Shown here: positions 893 through 12,490 of the stretch, piece after piece
How the letters are laid out: each line of letters begins with the position of its first letter
Position numbering within the stretch: the first letter of the stretch is position 1
NCBI GenBank assembly: GCA_964342655.1
Contig: CAYFFZ010000003.1
Span: 1-34,194, forward strand
Origin: an uncultured Nitrososphaerales archaeon
GTDB lineage: Archaea; Thermoproteota; Nitrososphaeria; Conexivisphaerales; UBA164
Reading direction: 5' to 3'
DNA: 34,194 nt
Translations under genes and position numbers: made by a program
The notes under the pieces: model-generated
Told to the model about the DNA's origin: nothing
Database searches by the model: none
What the model saw: only the letters and a program-made list of their open reading frames with translations

Positions 893-1303
893 ATGGTTAA
901 AAAGATGTGTGTTTCCGTGTTTTCGGGCAGCGTTGACAGGCTTACCGGATTAGCAATGCTTGTAAGCGGCGCTGCCGCGATGGGTATGAAGGTTGAACTT
1001 TTTCTTCAATTGTGGGGGGCTTATGCATTTAAAAAAGATGTGATAGGCAAGAACATGAACTTTAGCGAGTTCCAAGATAAAGCTCCGGAGGTTGCAAAAA
1101 GGTTGCAGGAGCTAAAGCTTCCGTCTTGGTTTGAGCTAATAAAAGAAGCAAAAAAAGTAGGAGATGTAAAGATATACCTTTGCTCTACAGCAGCGGCAAT
1201 ATGGAACGTTAAGAAAGAAGATCTTGAACTTGTGGATGATATAATTGGGGCAGGAGAATGGGCCGAGAAGAGTGCTGAAGCAGACATCACGCTCTTTGTT
1301 TAG
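893..1303 (+). CDS. dsrE: DsrE/DsrF/DrsH-like (DsrE2-type) sulfur relay protein
   Basis: SG..D..A...SGAAAMG..V.LF...WG and C-terminal VKIYLC with conserved Cys, ending ADITLFV; GGTGA Shine-Dalgarno upstream. Confidence 0.85.
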   Translation: MVKKMCVSVFSGSVDRLTGLAMLVSGAAAMGMKVELFLQLWGAYAFKKDVIGKNMNFSEFQDKAPEVAKRLQELKLPSWFELIKEAKKVGDVKIYLCSTAAAIWNVKKEDLELVDDIIGAGEWAEKSAEADITLFV

Positions 1304-1312
1304 TGATGGAAA

Positions 1313-1576
1313 ATGAGCGAACTTCCAGTTGAAGAGTTAAAAAAACTAAAAGTTAACAAGACTGTAGATGCGAGGGGCACATCGTGTCCCGGACCGCTTC
1401 TGGCGGCTAAAGCCGCAATTTCAGAAGTACCGGTTGGAGGGATACTTGAAGTTCTATCCTCTGATCCAGGTACAAAGAGAGACCTGCCGCTGTGGGCTAA
1501 AAAGATGGGGCATGTTTACCTAGGGACTTTGGAAGAACCCGGCTACTGGAGAATATTTGTAAAGAGGATGAAGTAG
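1313..1576 (+). CDS. tusA: Sulfur carrier protein TusA/SirA family
   Basis: DARGTSCPGP (CPxP) motif, LEVLSSDP..RDLP.W...GH; 87 aa. Confidence 0.93.
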   Translation: MSELPVEELKKLKVNKTVDARGTSCPGPLLAAKAAISEVPVGGILEVLSSDPGTKRDLPLWAKKMGHVYLGTLEEPGYWRIFVKRMK

Positions 1577-1986
1577 TGGAAATGCCAGAACTTCAGGTTC
1601 TGGTGTTTTCCACAAACCTGATTTCTGATGTGGGCATCGATTCAGCAGGGCTTATGCACTTCCCATATCCAGCAAATACCACAATTATAAGGTTACCTTG
1701 CTCATCTATGCTTAGACCCGAATGGGTTCTTCTGGCCATTAAGAGCGGCTTTGACGGCGTGTTCGTAGCAGCAGATGGCAGCGATTGTCCGTATCTAAAG
1801 GATTGTACCGAAAGGACCGCAAGGAGGGTGGATATGGCTCAAAATATCTTAAGAGAAAATGGTATAGAGCCGGAAAGGGTTAAGATGGCCGCTATATGCT
1901 CTGTCTGTGCTGAACCTTTTGCCAACCTTATAAAGGATTTTATCAGCAGCTTAGAAAAAATAGGGCCCGCGAGGAGAGGTAAATGA
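1576..1986 (+). CDS. mvhD: MvhD/FlpD-like iron-sulfur subunit with atypical Cys pattern
   Basis: D.AG...YP....IR.PCS, GFDGVFV, DCPY and GIEPERV motifs; GTG start overlaps the tusA stop. Confidence 0.85.
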   Translation: MEMPELQVLVFSTNLISDVGIDSAGLMHFPYPANTTIIRLPCSSMLRPEWVLLAIKSGFDGVFVAADGSDCPYLKDCTERTARRVDMAQNILRENGIEPERVKMAAICSVCAEPFANLIKDFISSLEKIGPARRGK

Positions 1987-3335
1987 ATTCTGTGTTTTCA
2001 AAAATTATCGAGCAGGCAGAAGAAGAGCCTGAAGAAAAGGAGTTTGACGTTGCGGTAATAGGAGCTGGAATAGCGGGCATGGAAGCTTCATTGGACCTTG
2101 CTGACATGGGTTATTCTGTGCTCCTTGTTGAAAGAGAACCTACTATAGGAGGAAAGATGTTTCTCCTCAGTAAGGTTTTTCCTACGCTTGATTGTGCAAG
2201 CTGCATCTCGACGCCAAAAATGGCCGCTGTTGCTCACCACCCGAAAATATCTCTTTGGACTTATAGCGAAGTATTAAAGATAAAGCAGCTCCATGAAAAA
2301 GGATACGAACTCAGGGTGATGAAAAAACCGAGGTTTGTAGATGAAGCTGCCTGCACTGGATGCTACACATGTGAAGAAGTGTGTCCGATAGATGTGCCAA
2401 AGGAGCTTGACTTTAACTTGAGGGCAAGGAGGGCAGCATACATACCTTTTGACACAGCTGTTCCCAAGGTCGCTGTAATAGACATAGATAACTGCATATT
2501 CTGTGGAAAATGCGAAAGGGAATGCCCGGTCAACGCTATAAACTTTCTCCAGAAGCCAAAAATTTATAGAATAAAAGTAAAATCTATAATACTAGCAACT
2601 GGCTATAACCTTTTCCAGGCAGAAAAGAAGGAGCAGTACGGCTTCGGGAAAATACCGAACGTCATAACATCTATGCAGATGGAGAGGTTGCTTTCTCCGA
2701 CAAGACCTTTTAATCACGTGCTGAGACCTATGGACGGAAAGGAACCGGGAAGCATAGGATATGTTCTCTGTACAGGATCAAGAGATAAAACTGTGGGCAA
2801 CCCGCTCTGCTCTCAGGTTTGTTGCATGTATTCGATGAAACAGGCACAGCTCATACTGGGCGCTCTTCCGCTGGCGGACGTGACGATATACTACATGGAC
2901 ATTAGGGCCTATGGAAAGGGGTTTGAAGAGTTCTACAATCAGGCGCAGGCCATGGGTGTAAAGTTCGTGCATGGAAGGATTGCAAAAGTTGAAAAGGGAG
3001 AAGGTGGGTCTGTCAGGGTTAAATATGAAAACATAGATGAAGGTGGAAAGTTAGAAACCTCAGAGCATGACCTCCTGGTGCTTTCTGTGGGGCTGCTCCC
3101 CAACTGTGAGATAGCAAAGACGTTTGAAGGGGTTTCTTTGTCTCTTGATGAGTTCGGATGGTTGCTGACCCCCGATCCTACAAATCCAGTAAAGACAAAC
3201 CTTGAAGGCGTTTTTGCTGCAGGGTGTTCAACTGGACCAAAAGATATCCCCGATACTGTTGTGCAGGCCGCATCAGCTGCCGCAGAATGCGCGGCCTATC
3301 TTAACAAGGTGAGGGTAGTTGCAGAAGAGCGATAA
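1983..3335 (+). CDS. hdrA: Short HdrA-like (QmoA-sized) FAD/Fe-S subunit
   Basis: GAGIAG FAD motif, KVFPTLDCASC, inserted 2x[4Fe-4S] (CTGCYTCEEVCP, CIFCGKCERECP), CTGSRD..CSQVCC, YMDIRAYGKGFEEFY, GPKDIPDTV. Lacks the N-terminal CHCG domain and the C-terminal ferredoxin. Confidence 0.92.
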   Translation: MNSVFSKIIEQAEEEPEEKEFDVAVIGAGIAGMEASLDLADMGYSVLLVEREPTIGGKMFLLSKVFPTLDCASCISTPKMAAVAHHPKISLWTYSEVLKIKQLHEKGYELRVMKKPRFVDEAACTGCYTCEEVCPIDVPKELDFNLRARRAAYIPFDTAVPKVAVIDIDNCIFCGKCERECPVNAINFLQKPKIYRIKVKSIILATGYNLFQAEKKEQYGFGKIPNVITSMQMERLLSPTRPFNHVLRPMDGKEPGSIGYVLCTGSRDKTVGNPLCSQVCCMYSMKQAQLILGALPLADVTIYYMDIRAYGKGFEEFYNQAQAMGVKFVHGRIAKVEKGEGGSVRVKYENIDEGGKLETSEHDLLVLSVGLLPNCEIAKTFEGVSLSLDEFGWLLTPDPTNPVKTNLEGVFAAGCSTGPKDIPDTVVQAASAAAECAAYLNKVRVVAEER

Positions 3336-5244
3336 GAAGATAGGGGTCTACGTTTGCCACTGCGGAGGGAACATAGCTGATGTGGTTGATGTAAAGAAGG
3401 TAGCAGACGAAGCTGCAAGGATCGATGGCGTTGTAGTATCGCGCGATTATATGTTTATGTGTTCTGAAGCCGGACAGAAGATGATCGAGGAGGACGTTAA
3501 AAATCTTAAGCTTGACGCTGTAGTTGTTGCAGCATGTTCGCCAAAGCTGCACGAATCAACGTTTAGAAATGTGCTGAAAAGAGCTGGAGGTAACCCTTAC
3601 ATGTACTATCATGCTAACATAAGGGAACAGGTTTCATGGGTTCACGAGCATGAAAAAGATAAGGCGACAGAAAAGGCGATAAGGGAGGTAAAGGCCGCCG
3701 TTGCCTACGTTTCAATGGCTGAACCCCTTGAAAAGATAACGGTTAAGGCAGAAAAATCGGTGCTGATAATCGGAGGGGGCATAGCAGGAATAAGGGCTGC
3801 AATAGATATAGCCGATATGGGGATGAACGCCTTCTTGGTCGAAAAGCAACCTTTTCTTGGCGGCATGACTGCTCAATTTAAGCAAGATATTTTTCCCTAC
3901 AACAAGGACTCTTTAACCCTCGTTAGAGACCTGATAGCAGAGCTTAAGAAGAGGCAGAACATAGCTGTTTTTACAAACGCTGAGCTTGAAGAGCTTACTG
4001 GTTATATAGGAAACTTCAGAGCAAAAATAAGGGTCAAACCAAGGTATTTTAAAGAAAGCTGCAATGGTGCTGATCTATTATCGGTTTGCCCCAAGAAAGT
4101 TAAAGACGGCGAAACATCAGAAGAGAGATCGGCCATCATGATGCCTCCTTTTGAAGGAGCTTATCCAGAAATTCCAGCCATAGATGCAAATATTTGCGAT
4201 TTTTGTGGGGAATGTGCCAGAGCTTGTAGCGCTGTAGACCTTTCGCAGAAAGAAGAAATTATTGAAATGAATGTTGGAGCCGTCATAATAGCGACGGGCT
4301 TTGAAACTTATAAACCAAAGGAAGGGGAATATGGTTACGGTAAGGAAGGCGTAATTACGCTTTCGATTCTAGCAAGAGTTTTGGGGAAAAAGGGCTACGT
4401 TGCATTGGATGGCAAAAGGGCCGAAAGCATAGCCATGATATACTGCGTTGGAAGCAGGCAGCAGGATGGAAACCAATACTGCTCAAGATACTGTTGCAAT
4501 GCCGCTTTGGAAGCAGCGATCTCGGCACAGAAATCTGGTACAAGGGTTTATCATATATTCAGGGACGTGCGATCCTATGGAAAGAACGAACTTCTGTATG
4601 AAAGGGCTTCAGCAGGCGGTTCAGTGTTTCTAAAGTACAGTCCAGAGTCTCCTCCTGTGGTTACCCATAAAGATGACAAGCTTACTGTTAAGGTTAAGGA
4701 TCTTCTTACTGAAGGAAAAGAGGTTGAGCTTTCAGTTGATGCGGTTGTGCTCGTGACGGGCATGGTTCCCCGAGAAAACGAAAAGCTCAACAGTATAATA
4801 AAGATCTCTGTAGGAAAAGACGGCTTTTACCAAGAAGTTCATCCAAAACTTAAACCTGTTGAGACAATGATTCCAGGAATTTTTATATGCGGAACAGCTC
4901 AGGGGCCTAAAATGGCAGTTGAGAGCATTTCTTCAGCTTCAGCTGCTGCGGCAAAAGCTGCATCCCTTATACTCAAAGGATACACTGAACTTGAACCTTA
5001 TGTAGCGACAGTTGATCCTTCACTATGCACTTTGAGCGAGGAGTGTATCAAAGAATGTCCCTATAACGCAATATACGTGTATGAATACGAGGGTTCTGGT
5101 AAAAAGGCAAAGGTAAATGAAGCTTTATGCAAGGGTTGTGGAGCTTGTGTGGCTGTATGTCCCAATGGAGCAATTCAGCTAAAAGGGTTGAAAAACGATC
5201 AGATAGAAAGAATGATAGTAAGCGCTGGTGGTGTTAATGGCTAA
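3319..5244 (+). CDS. hdrA: Full-length HdrA-like FAD/Fe-S subunit
   Basis: IGVYVCHCGGNI, FMCS, AACSP, NIREQ, GGGIAG, CVGSR..CSRYCC, C-terminal ferredoxin (CKGCGACVAVCP); TTG start after GGTGA. Confidence 0.92.
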   Translation: MQKSDKKIGVYVCHCGGNIADVVDVKKVADEAARIDGVVVSRDYMFMCSEAGQKMIEEDVKNLKLDAVVVAACSPKLHESTFRNVLKRAGGNPYMYYHANIREQVSWVHEHEKDKATEKAIREVKAAVAYVSMAEPLEKITVKAEKSVLIIGGGIAGIRAAIDIADMGMNAFLVEKQPFLGGMTAQFKQDIFPYNKDSLTLVRDLIAELKKRQNIAVFTNAELEELTGYIGNFRAKIRVKPRYFKESCNGADLLSVCPKKVKDGETSEERSAIMMPPFEGAYPEIPAIDANICDFCGECARACSAVDLSQKEEIIEMNVGAVIIATGFETYKPKEGEYGYGKEGVITLSILARVLGKKGYVALDGKRAESIAMIYCVGSRQQDGNQYCSRYCCNAALEAAISAQKSGTRVYHIFRDVRSYGKNELLYERASAGGSVFLKYSPESPPVVTHKDDKLTVKVKDLLTEGKEVELSVDAVVLVTGMVPRENEKLNSIIKISVGKDGFYQEVHPKLKPVETMIPGIFICGTAQGPKMAVESISSASAAAAKAASLILKGYTELEPYVATVDPSLCTLSEECIKECPYNAIYVYEYEGSGKKAKVNEALCKGCGACVAVCPNGAIQLKGLKNDQIERMIVSAGGVNG

Positions 5245-5509
5245 GTTAACCGCCCAGCAGCTCAGGGACATGATGAACATAAAGGTAAGCGAAAGGCTTG
5301 CTGAAATATCAAGAGAACAGGCTATCACAAGGACAAAAATAATAAATGCTTTATCGAACAAACCAAAAACTATACCCGAGATTTCTGAAGAGACAGGAAT
5401 GCCGGTTGAAAAGGTAACATGGAACGTCATGACGCTTTACAGGTACGGTGTCGTTGAACCTGTGGAAAAAACAGATGACGGTTATTATAGGTATAGGGTG
5501 AGGAAATGA
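5237..5509 (+). CDS. Small winged helix-turn-helix protein
   Basis: KIINAL..PKTIPEISEETGMPVEKV..V..L..YGVV plus a beta-wing. ATG 5237 preferred over 5228; overlaps both neighbours. Confidence 0.75.
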   Translation: MAKLTAQQLRDMMNIKVSERLAEISREQAITRTKIINALSNKPKTIPEISEETGMPVEKVTWNVMTLYRYGVVEPVEKTDDGYYRYRVRK

Positions 5510-6534
5510 TGCTTATAGATGAAATCAAAAAGATGGGGGCATTTGATGTTAATGCTTGCTTTAGCTGTGGGGTCTGCACCGCAACATGCCCGCTTTCAGA
5601 AAACGGTGATGAATTTCCAAGAAAGGTCATAAGGTACGCCATGGTGGGGCTTGAAAATGAGCTTCTGGGCTCTCCGCAGCTCTGGGAATGCTACTACTGT
5701 GGAGAATGCACGAAGAGCTGTCCGAGACAAGCTGATCCTGGAGGGTTCATGATGGCAGCAAGGAAGTATGCGATAACCAAATATTCTTTAGGAAAAATAG
5801 GAAAGGCTTTTTATAACAAAATAACGGCCCCAATCATCTATGCCATACTTTCAGCTTTTTCATTGATCGGAATATTCTTGATTTCTGGCGACCCGACAGC
5901 GAGCATGATATTTACAGTACCTGAGGACTATATACACCTAGCAGGCCTTGTTCTTGGAGCGTTTGTGCTTATAATCGCTCTTACAAACATACTTATAATG
6001 TACAGATACATATCTGGCAAAAGAAGGTTTTCAAAGAGTGTAAGGGTCTGGATAGCGTCGCTGGTCGGCGTGATAGTAAAGGAAGTAATAGCTCAAAAAA
6101 GATTTTCAAAATGTTCTGACCGTGTGAGGAGATATGCTCACATCTCTTTAGTGTGGGGCTTTATACTTCTCATGATAGCAACATCAATAGACTACATAAC
6201 AGGTTCAAGACCTTTGGAAGGAATGCTGTTCGGGTTTACAGGAGGAGCCATGATAATATTTGGCTCAGGTTTCTTTATATATCAGAGGTTGAAGAGGAAA
6301 GAACTTTATTCTCTTCACAGCGATTTTATCGATTGGGCGTTCATCATTTTAATATTTCTCGCAGGGTGCACCGGGTTTGCTCTAGACTTTCTGACAGGAA
6401 TGGCTGCTGTAGCGATGATGTATGCGCACCTGACCATAGTCTTTGATCTTATTGTAACGGCGCCGTTTACAAAGTTTGCGCATGCAATTTACAGAACCCT
6501 TGCCTTATGGTTAAAAGAAGTTCAGATCAAATGA
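5506..6534 (+). CDS. QmoC-like subunit: HdrC-type 2x[4Fe-4S] domain fused to a membrane cytochrome b (NarI/HdrE-like) domain
   Basis: CFSCGVCTATCP and CYYCGECTKSCP, then about 6 TM helices with candidate heme His residues (YIHLAG, YAHISL.WGF, YAHL, PFTKFAHAIYR). Confidence 0.85.
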   Translation: MMLIDEIKKMGAFDVNACFSCGVCTATCPLSENGDEFPRKVIRYAMVGLENELLGSPQLWECYYCGECTKSCPRQADPGGFMMAARKYAITKYSLGKIGKAFYNKITAPIIYAILSAFSLIGIFLISGDPTASMIFTVPEDYIHLAGLVLGAFVLIIALTNILIMYRYISGKRRFSKSVRVWIASLVGVIVKEVIAQKRFSKCSDRVRRYAHISLVWGFILLMIATSIDYITGSRPLEGMLFGFTGGAMIIFGSGFFIYQRLKRKELYSLHSDFIDWAFIILIFLAGCTGFALDFLTGMAAVAMMYAHLTIVFDLIVTAPFTKFAHAIYRTLALWLKEVQIK

Positions 6535-7274: not shown

Positions 7275-7664
7275 GTGGAAGAGTGGATCGCTAAAATAAA
7301 ATATATGATACCCAAACTCATCGAAGAACATAAAGAAATCCATGATCTTTTGCTTAAAAATACAGAAAATTATGCGACTGACAGACAATCCTTCGATGAG
7401 CTTGTAGAAAAACTTCAGAACCATATGTACAGTGAAGAAACTTGGATATTTCCGTTTATGATCGAAAAAGGAATATTCGATGAGAGGTCCGAAGAGATTG
7501 CGTCCCAGCACCAAGAAATAACTTCGATTCTTGTTTATCTTGAAAAGGCTGAAAAAGAAGATTTTTCAAAAAAGTACAGCGAGCTAGTAGGGCTTTTAAT
7601 AGAGCACCACAATGCTGAAGAAGAATACGTTTTTCCGCGTGTCCTAAATTCTATAGAAAAATAG
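7275..7664 (+). CDS. Hemerythrin/HHE cation-binding domain protein
   Basis: EEH..I, HMYSEE..FP, QH.EI, HHNAEEEYVFP. The true start may be ATG at 7305. Confidence 0.85.
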   Translation: MEEWIAKIKYMIPKLIEEHKEIHDLLLKNTENYATDRQSFDELVEKLQNHMYSEETWIFPFMIEKGIFDERSEEIASQHQEITSILVYLEKAEKEDFSKKYSELVGLLIEHHNAEEEYVFPRVLNSIEK

Positions 7665-7780: not shown

Positions 7781-8287
7781 ATGAAGGTAATAAATATAAT
7801 TGGTGAAAGCGAAACCGGCAAAACCAGAACCATAGAGCTTATAGTTAAAAAGCTAACTGAAGAAGGCAAAAACGTAGGCACGGTGAAACATATTCATTCT
7901 GATGATTTTACTCTAGATATGAAAGGAAAAGACACATGGCGGCACTTAAATGCAGGCGCCTCGACTGTTGTAGCAATAACAGATAGTGAAATAATTACTA
8001 TAAAGAGATCAGAAACAAAGAACATCAAGTTTGACGATATTCTTAGAATCTTTCAGGATCAGAAAGATTACATAATTATAGAAGGATTTAAGGGGATGAG
8101 CTTCCCGGCCAATGTCAAAAGAGTGCTGTGTGCTTCAGAAATAGAGCAGATAGAAACGTTCATTAAAAATTTTGGAAAGCCAGATTGTATTGTAACTTAC
8201 AGCATTAAAGATTTAAAGGAAATAAACGGCATACCTGTTTTATTTATGCCTATAGAAGCCGAGAGATTATTTAAAATAATATTATAA
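7781..8287 (+). CDS. mobB: Molybdopterin-guanine dinucleotide biosynthesis protein B
   Basis: GESETGKT P-loop, VKHIH, D..GKDTWRH..AGA, IIIEGFK. Confidence 0.92.
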   Translation: MKVINIIGESETGKTRTIELIVKKLTEEGKNVGTVKHIHSDDFTLDMKGKDTWRHLNAGASTVVAITDSEIITIKRSETKNIKFDDILRIFQDQKDYIIIEGFKGMSFPANVKRVLCASEIEQIETFIKNFGKPDCIVTYSIKDLKEINGIPVLFMPIEAERLFKIIL

Positions 8288-8590: not shown

Positions 8591-9196
8591 ATGTTGGAAC
8601 TTTCGATAGCCATACTAGCTGGCGGAAAGGGTTCAAGGATGGGTTCAGATAAGGCATTTTTGAAAGTTAACGGCTTGCCTTTTTTAAGGGTTATCTACGA
8701 TAGAATTTCAGGACTTTCCGATGACATCATGATAATTATAGGAAACAAGGAAGATAAAGAGTTTAAAAACTCGCTTCCTATTCAGACAAGGATTTTAAAA
8801 GACTCGGTTTATACTATGAGCCCAGTTGGTGGTCTGTTAACAGCTGCGCAAAGTTCGAGACATCAATACTTTGCAGTTTTGGCTGTAGACATGCCTCTTA
8901 TAAACCCTAAAGTTATTGAGATGCTTTATTTTAAGGCTCAAAATCATTCGGCAGCTTTGCCAGTCCTTAAAGACGGAACACTGGAAGTTCTATGCGCGGT
9001 CTATAATAAAGCAGATTTAAAAGAAATAAAACCAAATTCTGTAACATCTGTAAAAGAACTCGTAAGGAAGCTGCCAGATCCTATTTTTATTGATGCGGAG
9101 AAATTTATTGATGTTGATCCTGGCCTTGATAGTTTTTTTAATGTCAATACAAAAGAAGACCTGAAAGTTTTGATGAAAAAGCTGCAATTGGTTTAA
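8591..9196 (+). CDS. mobA: Molybdenum cofactor guanylyltransferase
   Basis: ILAGGKGSRMGSDKA, AVDMP, LCAVY, FFNVNT.ED. Confidence 0.93.
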   Translation: MLELSIAILAGGKGSRMGSDKAFLKVNGLPFLRVIYDRISGLSDDIMIIIGNKEDKEFKNSLPIQTRILKDSVYTMSPVGGLLTAAQSSRHQYFAVLAVDMPLINPKVIEMLYFKAQNHSAALPVLKDGTLEVLCAVYNKADLKEIKPNSVTSVKELVRKLPDPIFIDAEKFIDVDPGLDSFFNVNTKEDLKVLMKKLQLV

Positions 9197-9767: not shown

Positions 9768-10901
9768 TTAAGGCGAGCCCTTCCAAAAAAGCTGCACGGT
9801 TATCCTTTCCCCTTTTCTGTATTCTCTGTTTCTTTCTAAGTAACCAAAAGCATCTGCTTTAGCCAGCTCACTGTAAAGGCCTGTCCCCCACCTTAGAGGA
9901 TAAGCTTTGCTGTCATCGAGCTTAAAGAGGAAAGTCGCATTCATGCTGTGCTTCACATCTACATCTTCTCCAAGTTCAACGTCCTTGTACTTTCTTAGCT
10001 CAACGCCTATCATCTTTGAAACAACGTGAAGCCCTTCAGCGTTGAATACTGTTGCTGCAGAAACTATCCTTCCTGGTAGCGCTATAACAGGCTTCCCGTT
10101 AACTATACCAAGGCCTCCCCTCTTTATGACATTGGTCTGAACACCTTCGTAAAGTAGCTGTCCAACTTCAGAAATAGCCTTCTTGGTATAATCTTTTTTG
10201 CCCACAGAAGAGCCTCCAATTGTGAAGATTAAATCGCAATCCTTAGAAAACTCGTTAAGCGCTTGCTTTATCTTTTCCTTATCGTCCCCTATCAGCGTGT
10301 ATTTCTTTTCAGCAAACGGTAGGAGGTTCATTATCATGGGAGCTATAGCATCCCTTATACCATTATCATGATTATAAGGCACAAGCTCATCGCCTATTGA
10401 TACTAATCCAGCGCATATTTCAAATACCTTTACCGATTTTATGCCTGCTGCTATAAATAAAGGAACATGATAAGGCGAAACAAAGCTTCCTTTTCTAAGA
10501 AGCGCTACTCCAGCTTTTATATCTTCTCCAGCCCTCTCTACATCTTTCCACGGTTTTGGCCCCCTTGCAGGATAAAGTTTGTTGTCAACAACCCTTGCTT
10601 CTTCTATCCTGATTATCGAGTTAGCTCCTACAGGAAGCTTCATGCCAGTCATAACATAAGATGCCTGTCCTTTTTTGAGCTCATTCGAGCTTACTATTTC
10701 ATAGCTTTCTCCTTCATGGATGCTTACAGCGTAACCATCTTGGGCAGCTATATTTTCCTGCGGTATATCGTTCTGGCTCAAAACATCCTCAGCAACTATC
10801 ATGTTGACGGAATTAATAACATCGACATCCTTCGTCTTTAAGGGCTGTAACTTTAAGCCCTCTATTATCTTCTCGACTTCTTCGTACTTGATGAGAGGCA
10901 T
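9768..10901 (-). CDS. moeA: Molybdopterin molybdenum/tungsten transferase
   Basis: AAQDGYAV, VMTG..LP.GA.SIIRIE, GEDIKAG, SIGDEL, GGSSVGKKDYT, ALPG. Confidence 0.92.
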   Translation of the reverse strand: MPLIKYEEVEKIIEGLKLQPLKTKDVDVINSVNMIVAEDVLSQNDIPQENIAAQDGYAVSIHEGESYEIVSSNELKKGQASYVMTGMKLPVGANSIIRIEEARVVDNKLYPARGPKPWKDVERAGEDIKAGVALLRKGSFVSPYHVPLFIAAGIKSVKVFEICAGLVSIGDELVPYNHDNGIRDAIAPMIMNLLPFAEKKYTLIGDDKEKIKQALNEFSKDCDLIFTIGGSSVGKKDYTKKAISEVGQLLYEGVQTNVIKRGGLGIVNGKPVIALPGRIVSAATVFNAEGLHVVSKMIGVELRKYKDVELGEDVDVKHSMNATFLFKLDDSKAYPLRWGTGLYSELAKADAFGYLERNREYRKGERITVQLFWKGSP

Positions 10902-11087: not shown

Positions 11088-11363
11088 GTGATAGGTAGCG
11101 CCACCGATATAATAATAGTGATAATAGTAGCCGTAGTCCTTCTAGCTGGAACTAGCAAGATACCTGAAATATTTAGATCTATGGGAAGGGCGAAAGGCGA
11201 GTTCAAGAAGGGCGAACTGGAAGCAGAGATGGAGCTCAAACAGATGACTCAGGCAAATTCTACTCAATCTAAAGAGCAGAAGGTTGAAGAGCTCCAGAAG
11301 CAGATAGCTGAGCTTCAGAAGCAGTTAGAAGAACTGAAGAAAGAAGAAAAGACAACGAGCTAA
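11088..11363 (+). CDS. tatA: Twin-arginine translocase TatA with a coiled-coil tail
   Basis: Single TM helix, G..KIPEIFRSMGRA.GEFKKG amphipathic helix. Confidence 0.92.
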   Translation: MIGSATDIIIVIIVAVVLLAGTSKIPEIFRSMGRAKGEFKKGELEAEMELKQMTQANSTQSKEQKVEELQKQIAELQKQLEELKKEEKTTS

Positions 11364-11364
11364 A

Positions 11365-11685
11365 ATGCTCGGAAGCCTTACCGATACCCTCATACTTGTT
11401 TTTGTAGCTATTTTGCTGTTAGGCGGAGAAGGGGATCTTTCCGGCACGTTCAGAAAGTTTGGCAAATGGTGGGGCGAGCTAAAGAGATCTGAAGAAGAGT
11501 TCAGAAAGGAGATAACAAAAGAGCTTTCCGACATGGACATGAACTATTCTTTCACAGATAACAGCACAGCAAGCAGAAGCTATACAAACAGCAACAACGA
11601 CATAAGGGTTAAGGAATTGGAAAGACAGGTAAGGGAATTGCAGGAAGAAGTAAAAAGGTTAAAGAAAGAAAATGGAGAGAACTGA
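11365..11685 (+). CDS. Second TatA/TatB-family subunit
   Basis: TM helix, LLGG..DL....RKFGK.WGELK, coiled-coil tail; lies between tatA and tatC. Confidence 0.8.
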   Translation: MLGSLTDTLILVFVAILLLGGEGDLSGTFRKFGKWWGELKRSEEEFRKEITKELSDMDMNYSFTDNSTASRSYTNSNNDIRVKELERQVRELQEEVKRLKKENGEN

Positions 11686-12490
11686 GCTGGAAAACAACGA
11701 AAGACCATTAATCTCTCACATAACTGAGCTTCTAAGAAGGCTAAGGACGATATTGGTTGTTCTGGCCTTGGTATTTTTTGTATCATTTGCTTTCGGCATA
11801 AGGATGGTCGAGTATGCAGGGTACACAATACCTGTGCCCTATCCGAGCATATATTCAAGCATATCAGACTATGTCATAAAGGCATTCATATACAACGAGC
11901 TGCCAAAGGGAATGATACTTATAAACGTGAACACATTCGACCCTCTTTTCGCTTCGTTTTATGTATCTTTCTTTCTTTCTCTTTTTATAGCCGTTCCAAT
12001 AGCCATCTATGAGCTGTGGGCCTTTGTAGCCCCAGGTCTTTACAAGCACGAAAAGAAGCTGATAAAGCTCGCGGTGTTTCCTGCTGGAGCGCTTTTTGCC
12101 GCAGGCGCTTCTTTTGCCTATTTTATAATTGTTCCTTTCATGCTTAGGTTCGTTGTCATATACGCAAAGGTTCTCGGTATAATGCCAACGCTGAGCGTGA
12201 GGGCTTTTATAAACACGGTAATATCTCTTATGATGGCAACCGGCATAGCTTTTGAGTATCCAATGGCGATGGCAGTGCTGACTTTCATGGGTATAGTTTC
12301 AGCAAAGAGCTGGAAGAGCGGATGGAGGTGGGGAATAATAGGCGCGTTCATAATAGCCTGGATAATTTCGCCAGGAACCACAGGAGGGATAATAGAGACT
12401 ACAATAGGAATAATACTTTCTGGGCTTTACTTTGTTGGTGTTGCTGCAGCCTACATTATTGAAAGAAGATTAAAGAGAAACAAAAAGTGA
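11672..12490 (+). CDS. tatC: Twin-arginine translocase TatC
   Basis: PLISHITEL.RRL, YELWAFVAPGLYKHEK, LF.AG..FAY, GIAFEYP; about 6 TM helices. Confidence 0.95.
   Translation: MERTELENNERPLISHITELLRRLRTILVVLALVFFVSFAFGIRMVEYAGYTIPVPYPSIYSSISDYVIKAFIYNELPKGMILINVNTFDPLFASFYVSFFLSLFIAVPIAIYELWAFVAPGLYKHEKKLIKLAVFPAGALFAAGASFAYFIIVPFMLRFVVIYAKVLGIMPTLSVRAFINTVISLMMATGIAFEYPMAMAVLTFMGIVSAKSWKSGWRWGIIGAFIIAWIISPGTTGGIIETTIGIILSGLYFVGVAAAYIIERRLKRNKK

Follow-up and report, generated by a model that had tools for sequence, protein, structure and literature searches.

The subject of this report is a stretch of 34,194 nucleotides, referred to throughout as the window, which comprises positions 1 to 34,194 of the forward strand of contig CAYFFZ010000003.1 in assembly GCA_964342655.1. 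Its plus strand carries a tightly packed operon (Table 1) in which, from tusA onward, stop and start codons overlap or nearly so, and which includes a gene of the FlpD/MvhD family with a relocated set of cysteines; this gene and its product are called here the mvhD variant and the MvhD variant. MvhD and its counterparts VhuD and ElpC are the [2Fe-2S] adaptors of the Mvh-, Fdh- and Elp-Hdr complexes of methanogens (5ODC chain D, 7BKB chain F and 8RVU chain F), with which the variant has its Pfam family and fold in common.

Gene content of the operon

The operon begins with a gene of the DsrE family, the product of which gives a weak match to the NCBIfam DsrE2 model (28.6 bits against a cut-off of 210), and continues with tusA, whose product is 54-94% identical across 17 loci, with C25 invariant. 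Downstream of the mvhD variant lie two genes for HdrA-type flavoproteins, both of which have HdrA2 models as their best NCBIfam matches; relatives occur in Vulcanisaeta and Caldivirga records. The first, QmoA-like protein lacks the N- and C-terminal HdrA domains, and carries an inserted 2x[4Fe-4S] domain and a cysteine pair in the motif FPTLDCASC. In the second, QmoB-like protein, the HdrA N-terminal domain is present and the C-terminus carries a 2x[4Fe-4S] domain; a fused MvhD domain and the cysteine pair are absent. A gene for a small winged-helix-like protein separates this pair from a QmoC-like subunit, which scores 191 bits on the NCBIfam qmoC model (NF038018, used in further genomes as well), below the cut-off of 300, and also matches HdrC (E 8e-18, residues 15-95) and, weakly, Pfam Nitrate_red_gam. 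Pfam and NCBIfam scans of the cluster found no protein with a CCG domain (HdrB-type), and the Pfam scan found no hydrogenase, formate dehydrogenase or FrhB-like donor gene. A search for RNA sequencing runs that cover 893-6534 yielded none. The initial annotation of the window had placed the start of the mvhD variant within the tusA stop codon (TAG, 1574-1576); this holds for the GTG start at 1576, but not for the alternative ATG six bases on, which would leave a gap of 5 bases.

Table 1. Genes and motifs of the operon in the window, with regulator genes at related loci
Feature	Position	Strand	Details
DsrE-family sulfur-transferase-like gene	893..1303	+	136 aa (amino acids); Cys6, Cys97; Pfam DrsE_2 E 4e-11, DsrE E 1.7e-8
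tusA	1313..1576	+	87 aa; single Cys25 in DARGxxCPGP motif; Pfam TusA E 2.5e-22, 78.9 bits
mvhD variant (FlpD/MvhD family, relocated cysteine set)	1576..1986	+	136 aa; alternative ATG start 1582
FSTNLISD, aa 11-18, at the place of canonical FCCNWCSY	1606..1629	+	alignment to 5ODC_D
PCSS, aa 41-44, canonical Cys42 kept	1696..1707	+	C42 in 120/120 homologues; none in Desulfobacterota sister clade
AADGSDCPYLKDC, aa 65-77, GC cysteine deleted, D70 and C71 kept, C77 new	1768..1806	+	alignment; 120 homologues
ICSVC, aa 107-111, new C108xxC111	1894..1908	+	120/120 homologues, 80/80 metagenome relatives
First HdrA-type flavoprotein, QmoA-like	1983..3335	+	450 aa; NCBIfam HdrA2 E 2e-145, profile positions 130-565
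Second HdrA-type flavoprotein, QmoB-like	3319..5244	+	641 aa; NCBIfam HdrA2 E 2e-173, profile positions 1-639 of 777
Small Cys-free winged-helix-like protein	5228..5509	+	93 aa; weak Pfam HTH_5 match, E 6.5e-5
QmoC-like subunit, HdrC-type 2x[4Fe-4S] domain fused to membrane domain	5506..6534	+	342 aa; NCBIfam qmoC E 3.9e-56
Sigma-54 activator genes	L012:3387-4736, L013:3472-4827, L055:1398-2789, L140:7692-9107		PAS domain in three of four; L055 response-regulator receiver domain
ArsR-/CsoR-family regulator genes	L064:5292-5624, L089:5206-5598; L067:4784-5209, L107:5015-5374		

A relocated cysteine set in an unchanged MvhD fold

Membership of the variant in the MvhD family, as first annotated, is borne out by both sequence and predicted structure. 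Residues 8-130 cover the complete Pfam FlpD profile (PF02662, positions 1-123 of 123) with an E-value of 1e-29 and 103.5 bits against a cut-off of 22.3, and the HMMER alignment to 5ODC chain D gives an E-value of 4e-19. An AlphaFold 2 model of the protein reaches a mean predicted local distance difference test (pLDDT) score of 92.7, its best Foldseek match is 5odc_D (template modelling (TM) score 0.87, root-mean-square deviation 1.3 Å, 128 columns), and superposition on the MvhD, ElpC and Fdh-MvhD chains (5odc_D, 8rvu_F and 7bkb_F) yields TM scores of 0.86-0.87. As modelled, the MvhD fold is unchanged and the cysteine set alone has moved.

In the alignment to 5ODC_D, the canonical segment FCCNWC(T/S)Y is represented by FSTNLISD, which contains no cysteine, in agreement with the initial annotation. 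The cysteine of the canonical VMCSGR motif is retained as C42 (locally LPCSSM), GGCHLGDCHY has become AA-DGSDCPY, with the first cysteine gone through a one-residue deletion and the second retained as C71, and WISASEGE has become AICSVCAE, which creates the new C108xxC111; a further new cysteine, C77, is brought in by the segment LKDC, and both of these gains had likewise been noted at the outset. Thus, only C42 and C71 remain of the canonical cysteine positions 12, 13, 16, 42, 66' and 71 (query numbering), and the suspected loss of at least two cluster ligands is real. Published work describes Cys16 of MvhD as an additional, non-ligand cysteine, so that the four canonical ligands must lie among the other five conserved positions, only two of which are cysteines in the variant. 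The five cysteine codons of the variant are TGC 1699-1701, TGT 1786-1788, TGT 1804-1806, TGC 1897-1899 and TGT 1906-1908.

A word-indexed protein search returned 814 proteins at E <= 1e-3 among 833 candidates, of which the best 120 (55-90% identity) were scored for cysteines. All 120 contain C42, C71, C77, C108 and C111 and lack cysteine at positions 12, 13 and 16, where S/T/A, T and I/V are found, respectively; position 70 is D or E in every one of them. The five cysteines also form invariant columns in an 83-row alignment, and the CxxC together with the motif G.[DE]C...C recurs in 80/80 metagenome relatives. Because it is kept throughout these three sets, the cysteine set is not a product of chance, and the CxxC, the conservation of which in orthologues the initial annotation had made its touchstone, is a fixed trait. 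When 1.84 billion cluster representatives were searched exhaustively with HMMER, 1015 family members were found at E <= 1e-3, with a sharp drop in identity between variant (41-66%) and canonical MvhD (28-37%) representatives. The canonical members follow the pattern CC..C / C / gC...DC without the CxxC, which is also absent from the C-terminal domain of the one type I QmoB compared.

Longer fused forms were encountered as well, three among 392 candidates plus further long representatives, none of which was counted as a fusion of TusA, the MvhD variant and HdrA. The long representatives P0122, P0131, P0139 and P0149 run into arginine-rich nonsense of the kind seen in frameshifted gene calls of high GC content, and P0121 is garbled further on. 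In two Vulcanisaeta drafts (L017:7001-7380 and L024:7001-7379; tblastn identity 67-69%), the mvhD variant has no full open reading frame (ORF), its frame being interrupted, and qmoB is also in pieces; the interruptions could be draft errors or decay.

The CxxC clade and its sister lineage

The relationships within the family were surveyed with a quick IQ-TREE tree of 112 rows, comprising the query, those 97 among 150 representatives with coverage of 115 or more of the 136 columns, and 14 added variants, with support given solely as the Shimodaira-Hasegawa-like approximate likelihood ratio test (SH-aLRT). The 22 variant rows fall on one side of a branch (SH-aLRT 94), and together with six further CxxC-bearing rows they fall on one side of another branch (SH-aLRT 94), the other side of which holds 80 canonical and 4 unclassified rows. 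The MvhD variant and its relatives are therefore a distinct, conserved clade of FlpD/MvhD, marked by the loss of the N-terminal CCxxC and the gain of a C-terminal CxxC.

Where the records give a name, the six sister representatives trace to Acidobacteriaceae, Anaerolineales and Thermoanaerobacterales/Bacillota. The genome that contains locus L018 revealed a fuller sister lineage, of which a relative (E <= 1e-25) is present in 31 of the 401 genomes sampled from the phylum of that genome. Its sequences follow the pattern ILILATESCAYPG ... RVKAPVL ... MSCGVECPY ... ICTVC, with C16, C66', C71, C108 and C111 present and C42 and C77 lacking; the CxxC is found in all 30 sister-clade loci listed.

According to source names and record titles, the MvhD variant occurs in archaea of the groups Caldivirga, Vulcanisaeta, Fervidicoccaceae, Desulfurococcales, Odinarchaeota, Njordarchaeia and Thermoplasmata, and in bacteria of the groups Aminicenantes, Bacillota, Desulfotomaculum copahuensis, FCPU426, Firestonebacteria and Ca. 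Electryonea. The clade as a whole extends over Thermoproteota, Thermoplasmata, Asgard archaea, Desulfobacterota, Aminicenantes, Bacillota and candidate phyla, the labels Thermoproteota and Desulfobacterota being derived from names. The nearest records (93% identity) are metagenome-assembled genomes (MAGs) of Conexivisphaerales, Nitrososphaeria and Thaumarchaeota, and within the phylum of the window itself the variant is rare, with 5 occurrences in 400 other genomes sampled.

Linkage to tusA and conservation of the operon

The gene tusA lies directly upstream of the mvhD variant in 18/18 genome loci with at least 50% identity (L001-L017 and L024), in 75 of the 78 metagenome loci with at least 300 base pairs (bp) of upstream sequence (two further loci were too short upstream to count), and in 29 of the 30 sister-lineage loci, the 30th having tusA 344 bp upstream. 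As for the metagenome exceptions, in L052 dsrE-tusA closes the same cluster at its 3' end, and at L058 and L060 the 946 and 589 bp of upstream sequence, respectively, contain no tusA. In contrast, tusA was found at none of the 26 canonical MvhD loci (L018-L023 and L025-L044; 31-36% identity; Syntrophobacteraceae and others). Taken together, tusA adjoins mvhD at 122 of 126 loci of the CxxC clade and at 0 of 26 canonical loci; the cysteine rewiring and the adjacency of tusA co-vary strictly. A DsrE-like gene on the same strand accompanies them in 33 of the 59 metagenome loci with at least 1000 bp upstream. The proposed co-occurrence with tusA and dsrE is hence confirmed, and the possibility that the variant is common among ordinary MvhD proteins finds no footing among the canonical loci and sequences.

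The linkage extends downstream. In the 18 variant genome loci, two HdrA-type genes follow wherever the contig permits; in 68 of the 69 metagenome loci with sufficient room, an HdrA-type gene follows, the lone exception being due to a 2-base overlap; and in the sister lineage, a QmoA-like gene comes next in 29/30, with the contig ending in the other. The 26 canonical loci adjoin large HdrA/HdrL genes. The conserved operon is (dsrE)-tusA-mvhD variant-hdrA'-hdrA''-small winged-helix gene, followed by either a QmoC-like membrane module or HdrC+HdrB. Of the 39 metagenome loci whose sequence extends as far as the small winged-helix gene, 19 have a long QmoC-like gene next, 13 have genes for HdrC and a CCG-domain HdrB, and 7 could not be assigned to either form. 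HdrC+HdrB also follow the same variant in L012 and L014, and HdrB is present in L057. In many bacterial versions, such as those of L012 and L014, the first flavoprotein is about 900 aa long and HdrL-like, with a GltD-like insertion that binds nicotinamide adenine dinucleotide (phosphate) (NAD(P)). The sister-lineage locus L140 is composed of a tandem-TusA gene, mvhD, two flavoprotein genes, the small gene and dsrE, with a divergent sigma-54 activator, and neither HdrC/B nor QmoC was found within 6 kb downstream; two other sister genomes have an HdrC-like match about 4 kb downstream on the same strand.

The flanks of 15 further loci (80 ORFs) contain a [NiFe] hydrogenase and an FrhB-like gene in L057 only, and in four further loci scanned (including L012 and L014), no hydrogenase or formate dehydrogenase was found at the canonical donor place. 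In L057, genes for the large and small [NiFe]-hydrogenase subunits and an FrhB-like protein (L057:2109-4842) lie directly upstream on the same strand, and are followed by dsrE-tusA-mvhD variant-hdrA-hdrA-small gene-HdrC-HdrB.

The small winged-helix gene is kept at the same operon place in archaeal, bacterial and Desulfobacterota clusters. Its product, a Cys-free protein of about 80-117 aa with 27-45% identity, is always encoded between the second flavoprotein gene and the gene that comes next (L004, L007-L009, L012, L014, L015 and L140), and could be either a regulator of the operon or a structural subunit. The portions of bioRxiv 10.64898/2026.04.10.717634 on BamF of class II benzoyl-CoA reductase describe a winged-helix motif serving as an interface.

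In the Ca. Electryonea locus (L013:9179-12654), the first flavoprotein is shorter (597 aa), and is followed by DRTGG, CBS/HATPase, PHP, HATPase and NuoE-like [2Fe-2S] genes in place of the second HdrA. The dsrE-like gene that closes the Desulfobacterota cluster (L140:13928-14293) contains one in-frame stop, which could be a selenocysteine, a frameshift or a sequencing error. Many canonical mvhD ORFs in the Syntrophobacteraceae loci (L018-L044, e.g., L018:6920-7186 and L022:2703-3191) stop right after GVFV, where relatives go on with gCH.GDCHY, and two such mvhD matches of genome G415 have one in-frame TGA, which would fit a selenocysteine at the canonical Cys66'.

Possible function of the MvhD variant

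The two flavoproteins differ in a feature that bears on the placement of the MvhD variant. A FPTxDCxxC pair is present in 63/63 first flavoproteins, whether QmoA- or HdrL-like (61 recognized by a regular expression and two reading DCCSC), and in 0/43 second flavoproteins, and of the two only the second has the HdrA N- and C-terminal domains. In the canonical complex, as depicted in the relevant portions of PMC13580544 and PMC12350162, the Cys202/205 pair of HdrA and Cys16, His68 and Asp71 of MvhD lie between the MvhD site and the flavin adenine dinucleotide (FAD) of the other HdrA, Asp71 contacts the HdrA pair, and the pair also occurs in canonical systems that lack TusA. By transfer from this arrangement, we infer that the MvhD variant would sit on the QmoB-like subunit, facing the FAD and cysteine pair of the QmoA-like subunit. 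The equivalent of Asp71 is kept in the variant as D/E70, and that of Cys16 is I or V.

Since tusA stands at the place that the donor gene occupies in canonical operons, a sulfur carrier is the most economical candidate for the partner of the MvhD variant. We therefore put forward, as a proposition that we consider evenly poised between right and wrong, that the variant is the adaptor subunit of a TusA/DsrE-coupled complex, probably with a relocated Fe-S cluster that acts on sulfur. That the variant holds an Fe-S cluster at all is somewhat probable; it would most likely be retained on ligands from the beta3 and beta4 loops, namely C71, C108 and C111 plus C77 or C42, which would leave one spare thiol beside the cluster in an arrangement resembling that of ferredoxin:thioredoxin reductase (FTR). 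Direct contact between TusA and the variant is a more tentative element, which we hold to be rather doubtful. Such a site could couple one-electron cluster chemistry to two-electron sulfur chemistry on the persulfide of TusA (or DsrE), and electrons would pass between TusA/DsrE sulfur, the flavins and, through QmoC, quinone; in other lineages, the partner could instead be HdrB, or NAD(P)H reached by way of an HdrL-type subunit. The potential of the persulfide/sulfide couple lies between those of ferredoxin and menaquinone. Both reductive roles (sulfur or persulfide reduction) and oxidative roles are thermodynamically conceivable.

A precedent for a cluster of this kind has been proposed for FTR and BamF, in which an Fe-S cluster lies next to a redox-active cysteine or selenocysteine (Sec) and mediates between one- and two-electron thiol chemistry (bioRxiv 10.64898/2026.04.10.717634, in the portions concerned). 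According to the same source, BamF is homologous to MvhD and has Sec19 close to its cluster, and the cysteine beside the canonical MvhD cluster, where BamF has this Sec19, is proposed for FTR-like thiol chemistry. The MvhD variant is not an FTR by sequence and, unlike BamF, which keeps the N-terminal site, has its extra cysteines moved to the beta4 loop; by analogy, a cluster plus an adjacent thiol or CxxC would fit the FTR-like principle.

Several observations weigh against a relocated cluster that acts on sulfur. C71, C108 and C111 are the only cysteines common to the variant and the sister clade, and some related representatives (P0162 and P0184) carry the CxxC alone, in which case no four-cysteine cluster is possible. 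Flavodoxin-like folds arrange their strands as 2-1-3-4. C42 comes after beta2 and the CxxC after beta4, and if that order applies here, the two would be far apart in the sheet. The presence of HdrB in 13 of the 32 resolved loci means that the sulfur chemistry could occur there instead of at the MvhD variant. A prediction of the complex of the variant (83-row alignment) with TusA (17-row alignment) scored 0.01 against a mark of 0.32 and, having been run without controls, bears neither way.

The low cysteine counts of P0162 and P0184, and of P0157, which has the CxxC plus one other cysteine, would speak for a function as a dithiol, or for a cluster held jointly with a partner subunit. A variant devoid of a cluster, with the CxxC as a redox-active dithiol/disulfide that relays between the flavoprotein cysteine pair and TusA/DsrE in the manner of thioredoxin, would also accord with the CxxC being the most conserved feature of the whole clade and with the disappearance of the canonical ligands at 12/13 and 66'. 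Nevertheless, five cysteines are invariant in 120/120 homologues and the listed sister sequences mostly have at least five, which exceeds the need of a dithiol, and the MvhD fold is otherwise unaltered in the model; we consider a cluster-free relay improbable.

The initial annotation had gone further in suggesting that the variant replaces HdrB. Taken strictly, with the variant as the catalytic site in place of HdrB, this suggestion draws on the absence of a CCG-domain protein from the window cluster and other QmoC-type clusters, on the long QmoC in 19 of the 32 resolved loci, and on L140, which lacks HdrB and QmoC within 6 kb downstream. As a general role it is contradicted by the same variant occurring with HdrB in 13/32 resolved loci, in L012 and L014 and also in L057, and it is very improbable. 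A further reading, in which TusA, the MvhD variant, the two flavoproteins, the winged-helix protein and often DsrE form a new class of protein-persulfide oxidoreductase with the rewired MvhD as the catalytic subunit, is in our judgement unlikely, if less so. In such an enzyme, an FTR-like cluster-plus-CxxC site would reduce or oxidise the sulfane sulfur on TusA, and an HdrA-type flavin might bifurcate or confurcate electrons among the sulfur couple, ferredoxin, and quinone or NAD(P)H. If true, the variant would join HdrB and HdrD as a third type of Hdr active site.

Sulfur metabolism of the host genome

The assembly to which the window belongs measures 1.1 Mb in 121 contigs and is 73% complete. 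It contains only two FlpD genes, that of the window and one on the 3.9 kb contig C65 (C65:1-3928, locus L134), where a second dsrE-tusA-mvhD variant-qmoA-qmoB appears in the same order and encodes an MvhD variant 92% identical to that of the window; this copy is either a co-assembled strain variant or a true paralogue. Family searches found dsrA-/dsrB-like genes, which reach 318 and 126 bits on the dsrA model and stay under its cut-off, as is also the case in Caldivirga; they further found dsrC, and an aprA that is split over the ends of contigs C34 and C50. As read from the ORFs, C34:1-10639 carries the 5' part of aprA, aprB, a gene for a 251-aa multi-helix membrane protein, dsrN-like, dsrC, dsrB, dsrA, dsrM and dsrK genes, and another DsrE-like gene; the dsrN-, dsrM-, dsrK- and aprB-like labels were given by eye, without confirmation by family search, and the rest of aprA lies on C50:1-1359. 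The membrane protein beside aprB could be an AprM-like anchor, and if so, a Qmo-like complex would be dispensable for Apr.

These genes bear on the possibility that the MvhD variant is an ordinary electron-wire adaptor, with a normal Fe-S cluster at drifted ligand positions, and that TusA/DsrE act elsewhere, be it at HdrB, at the cysteine pair of the QmoA-like subunit or at external Apr/Dsr, the linkage of tusA then reflecting membership in the operon and not contact. The dsrA-/dsrB-like genes, dsrC and aprA of the own genome, along with dsrM, dsrK and aprB as read by eye on C34, would provide such a site, as would HdrC+HdrB after the same variant in 13/32 resolved loci plus L012 and L014, or the thioredoxin-reductase-like cysteine pair that the first flavoprotein keeps in 63/63 cases. 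However, the strict co-variation of rewiring and tusA (122/126 against 0/26 loci) is difficult to reconcile with mere co-membership, the HdrA pair, which also exists in TusA-less canonical systems, gives no account of the specificity, and the archaeal form and L140 do without HdrB. On this evidence, a plain electron wire appears unlikely, although it is the alternative to which we would assign most weight. Against a relocated cluster acting on sulfur stands the occurrence of the gene cluster both with and without dsrA: among 10 other genomes, dsrA exceeded the cut-off in 3 and fell slightly short of it in 1, and 6 yielded no match (all of them MAGs, the completeness of which is not established). 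The physiological direction is thus not fixed by dsrA.

Relation to known Hdr and Qmo systems

Canonical MvhD and the variant both occur beside HdrA-type flavoproteins and have C42, C71 and the acidic residue before C71 in common. Unlike canonical MvhD, the variant has no cysteine at 12, 13, 16 and 66', and C77 and C108xxC111 are new; its gene in the window is adjoined by tusA (often also by dsrE in relatives), not by a hydrogenase, formate dehydrogenase or F420 module.

Type I QmoABC of sulfate reducers and sulfur oxidisers has a flavoprotein pair, a QmoC membrane anchor and an MvhD-like module in common with the window cluster, from which it differs in that the MvhD-like domain, which lacks the CxxC in the one example compared, is fused to the C-terminus of QmoB, whereas in the window it is a separate upstream gene, and in that the QmoC-like subunit of the window falls short of the qmoC cut-off. 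A further possibility is that the variant is nothing more than the C-terminal MvhD-like domain of QmoB, detached as a gene of its own: the QmoB-like protein ends at position 639 of 777 of the HdrA2 profile without a fused domain, and the variant matches positions 649-774. Yet the mvhD variant stands upstream of qmoA and not after qmoB, and the type I QmoB domain of the example (724 aa, encoded beside aprA and a QmoC of 453 bits) keeps C42, C66' and C71, reads IGHSD where the variant has ICSVC, and matches the variant profile at an E-value of only 4e-9, which makes a split QmoB highly improbable. Type I qmo genes are syntenic with aprBA; in the genome of the window, the aprA pieces are on C34 and C50 and the aprB-like gene, identified by eye, is on C34, the assembly being fragmented so that linkage on a larger scale is possible.

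The archaeal form of the operon appears to match the published "type II Qmo", to which it is likened by description and by the lineages of the relatives. Type II QmoABC, reported for 'Ca. Vulcanisaeta moutnovskia' and Ammonifex degensii, consists of two HdrA-like proteins that are closer to HdrA than to bacterial QmoAB, plus a QmoC-like protein; in the portions of PMC10504309 that describe it, TusA, MvhD and a small winged-helix gene are not named among its components, nor is there mention of a cysteine rewiring.

Another comparison is offered by sHdr, HdrC1B1A-Hyp-C2B2, in which a single HdrA is combined with two HdrB-type subunits and with lipoate-binding proteins, and which is not known to include an MvhD. 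Unlike sHdr, the window cluster has two HdrA types and the MvhD variant, and no CCG-domain HdrB was found in it (LbpA was not part of the search). As in the window cluster, an Hdr-type redox complex is accompanied in the sHdr system by TusA and DsrE carriers (TusA, DsrE3 and LbpA; PMC11094781, in the portions concerned).

The FlpD/MvhD family and the HdrA/Qmo framework are already known, and the archaeal operon appears to be the "type II Qmo". The literature searched contained neither a CxxC-bearing, CCxxC-less clade of MvhD, nor its near-obligate pairing with tusA in archaea and bacteria, nor the small winged-helix gene, and no publication was found that links TusA with the MvhD variant; the co-mentions checked stand in unrelated passages, and Chernyh et al. 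2020 and Appel et al. 2021 may bear on the point. The significance of the clade lies in the fact that it has, as a whole, swapped its cysteine set and has a sulfur-carrier protein as its neighbour in place of a donor enzyme. To judge from gene content, the operon points to a sulfur-handling redox complex in many archaea and bacteria, and the TusA-linked MvhD variant provides a concrete hypothesis for the role of "type II Qmo" complexes, as well as a simple genome marker for them: no CCxxC, a C-terminal CxxC, and tusA upstream. Should the persulfide of TusA prove to be the substrate, sulfur trafficking and HdrA-type flavin chemistry would be directly connected through this clade, whether or not HdrB is present.

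Neighbouring regulators and downstream genes

The sigma-54 activator, ArsR and CsoR families include the persulfide sensors FisR, SqrR/BigR and CstR. Regulators of these three families neighbour the operon in several loci (Table 1).

Downstream of the cluster in the window, Pfam identifies a hemerythrin-domain gene, mobB and mobA (7275-7664, 7781-8287 and 8591-9196), and moeA-like and tatA/tatC-like genes further on (9768-10901 and 11088-12490) were read from ORFs only; these genes have no evident connection to the MvhD variant.

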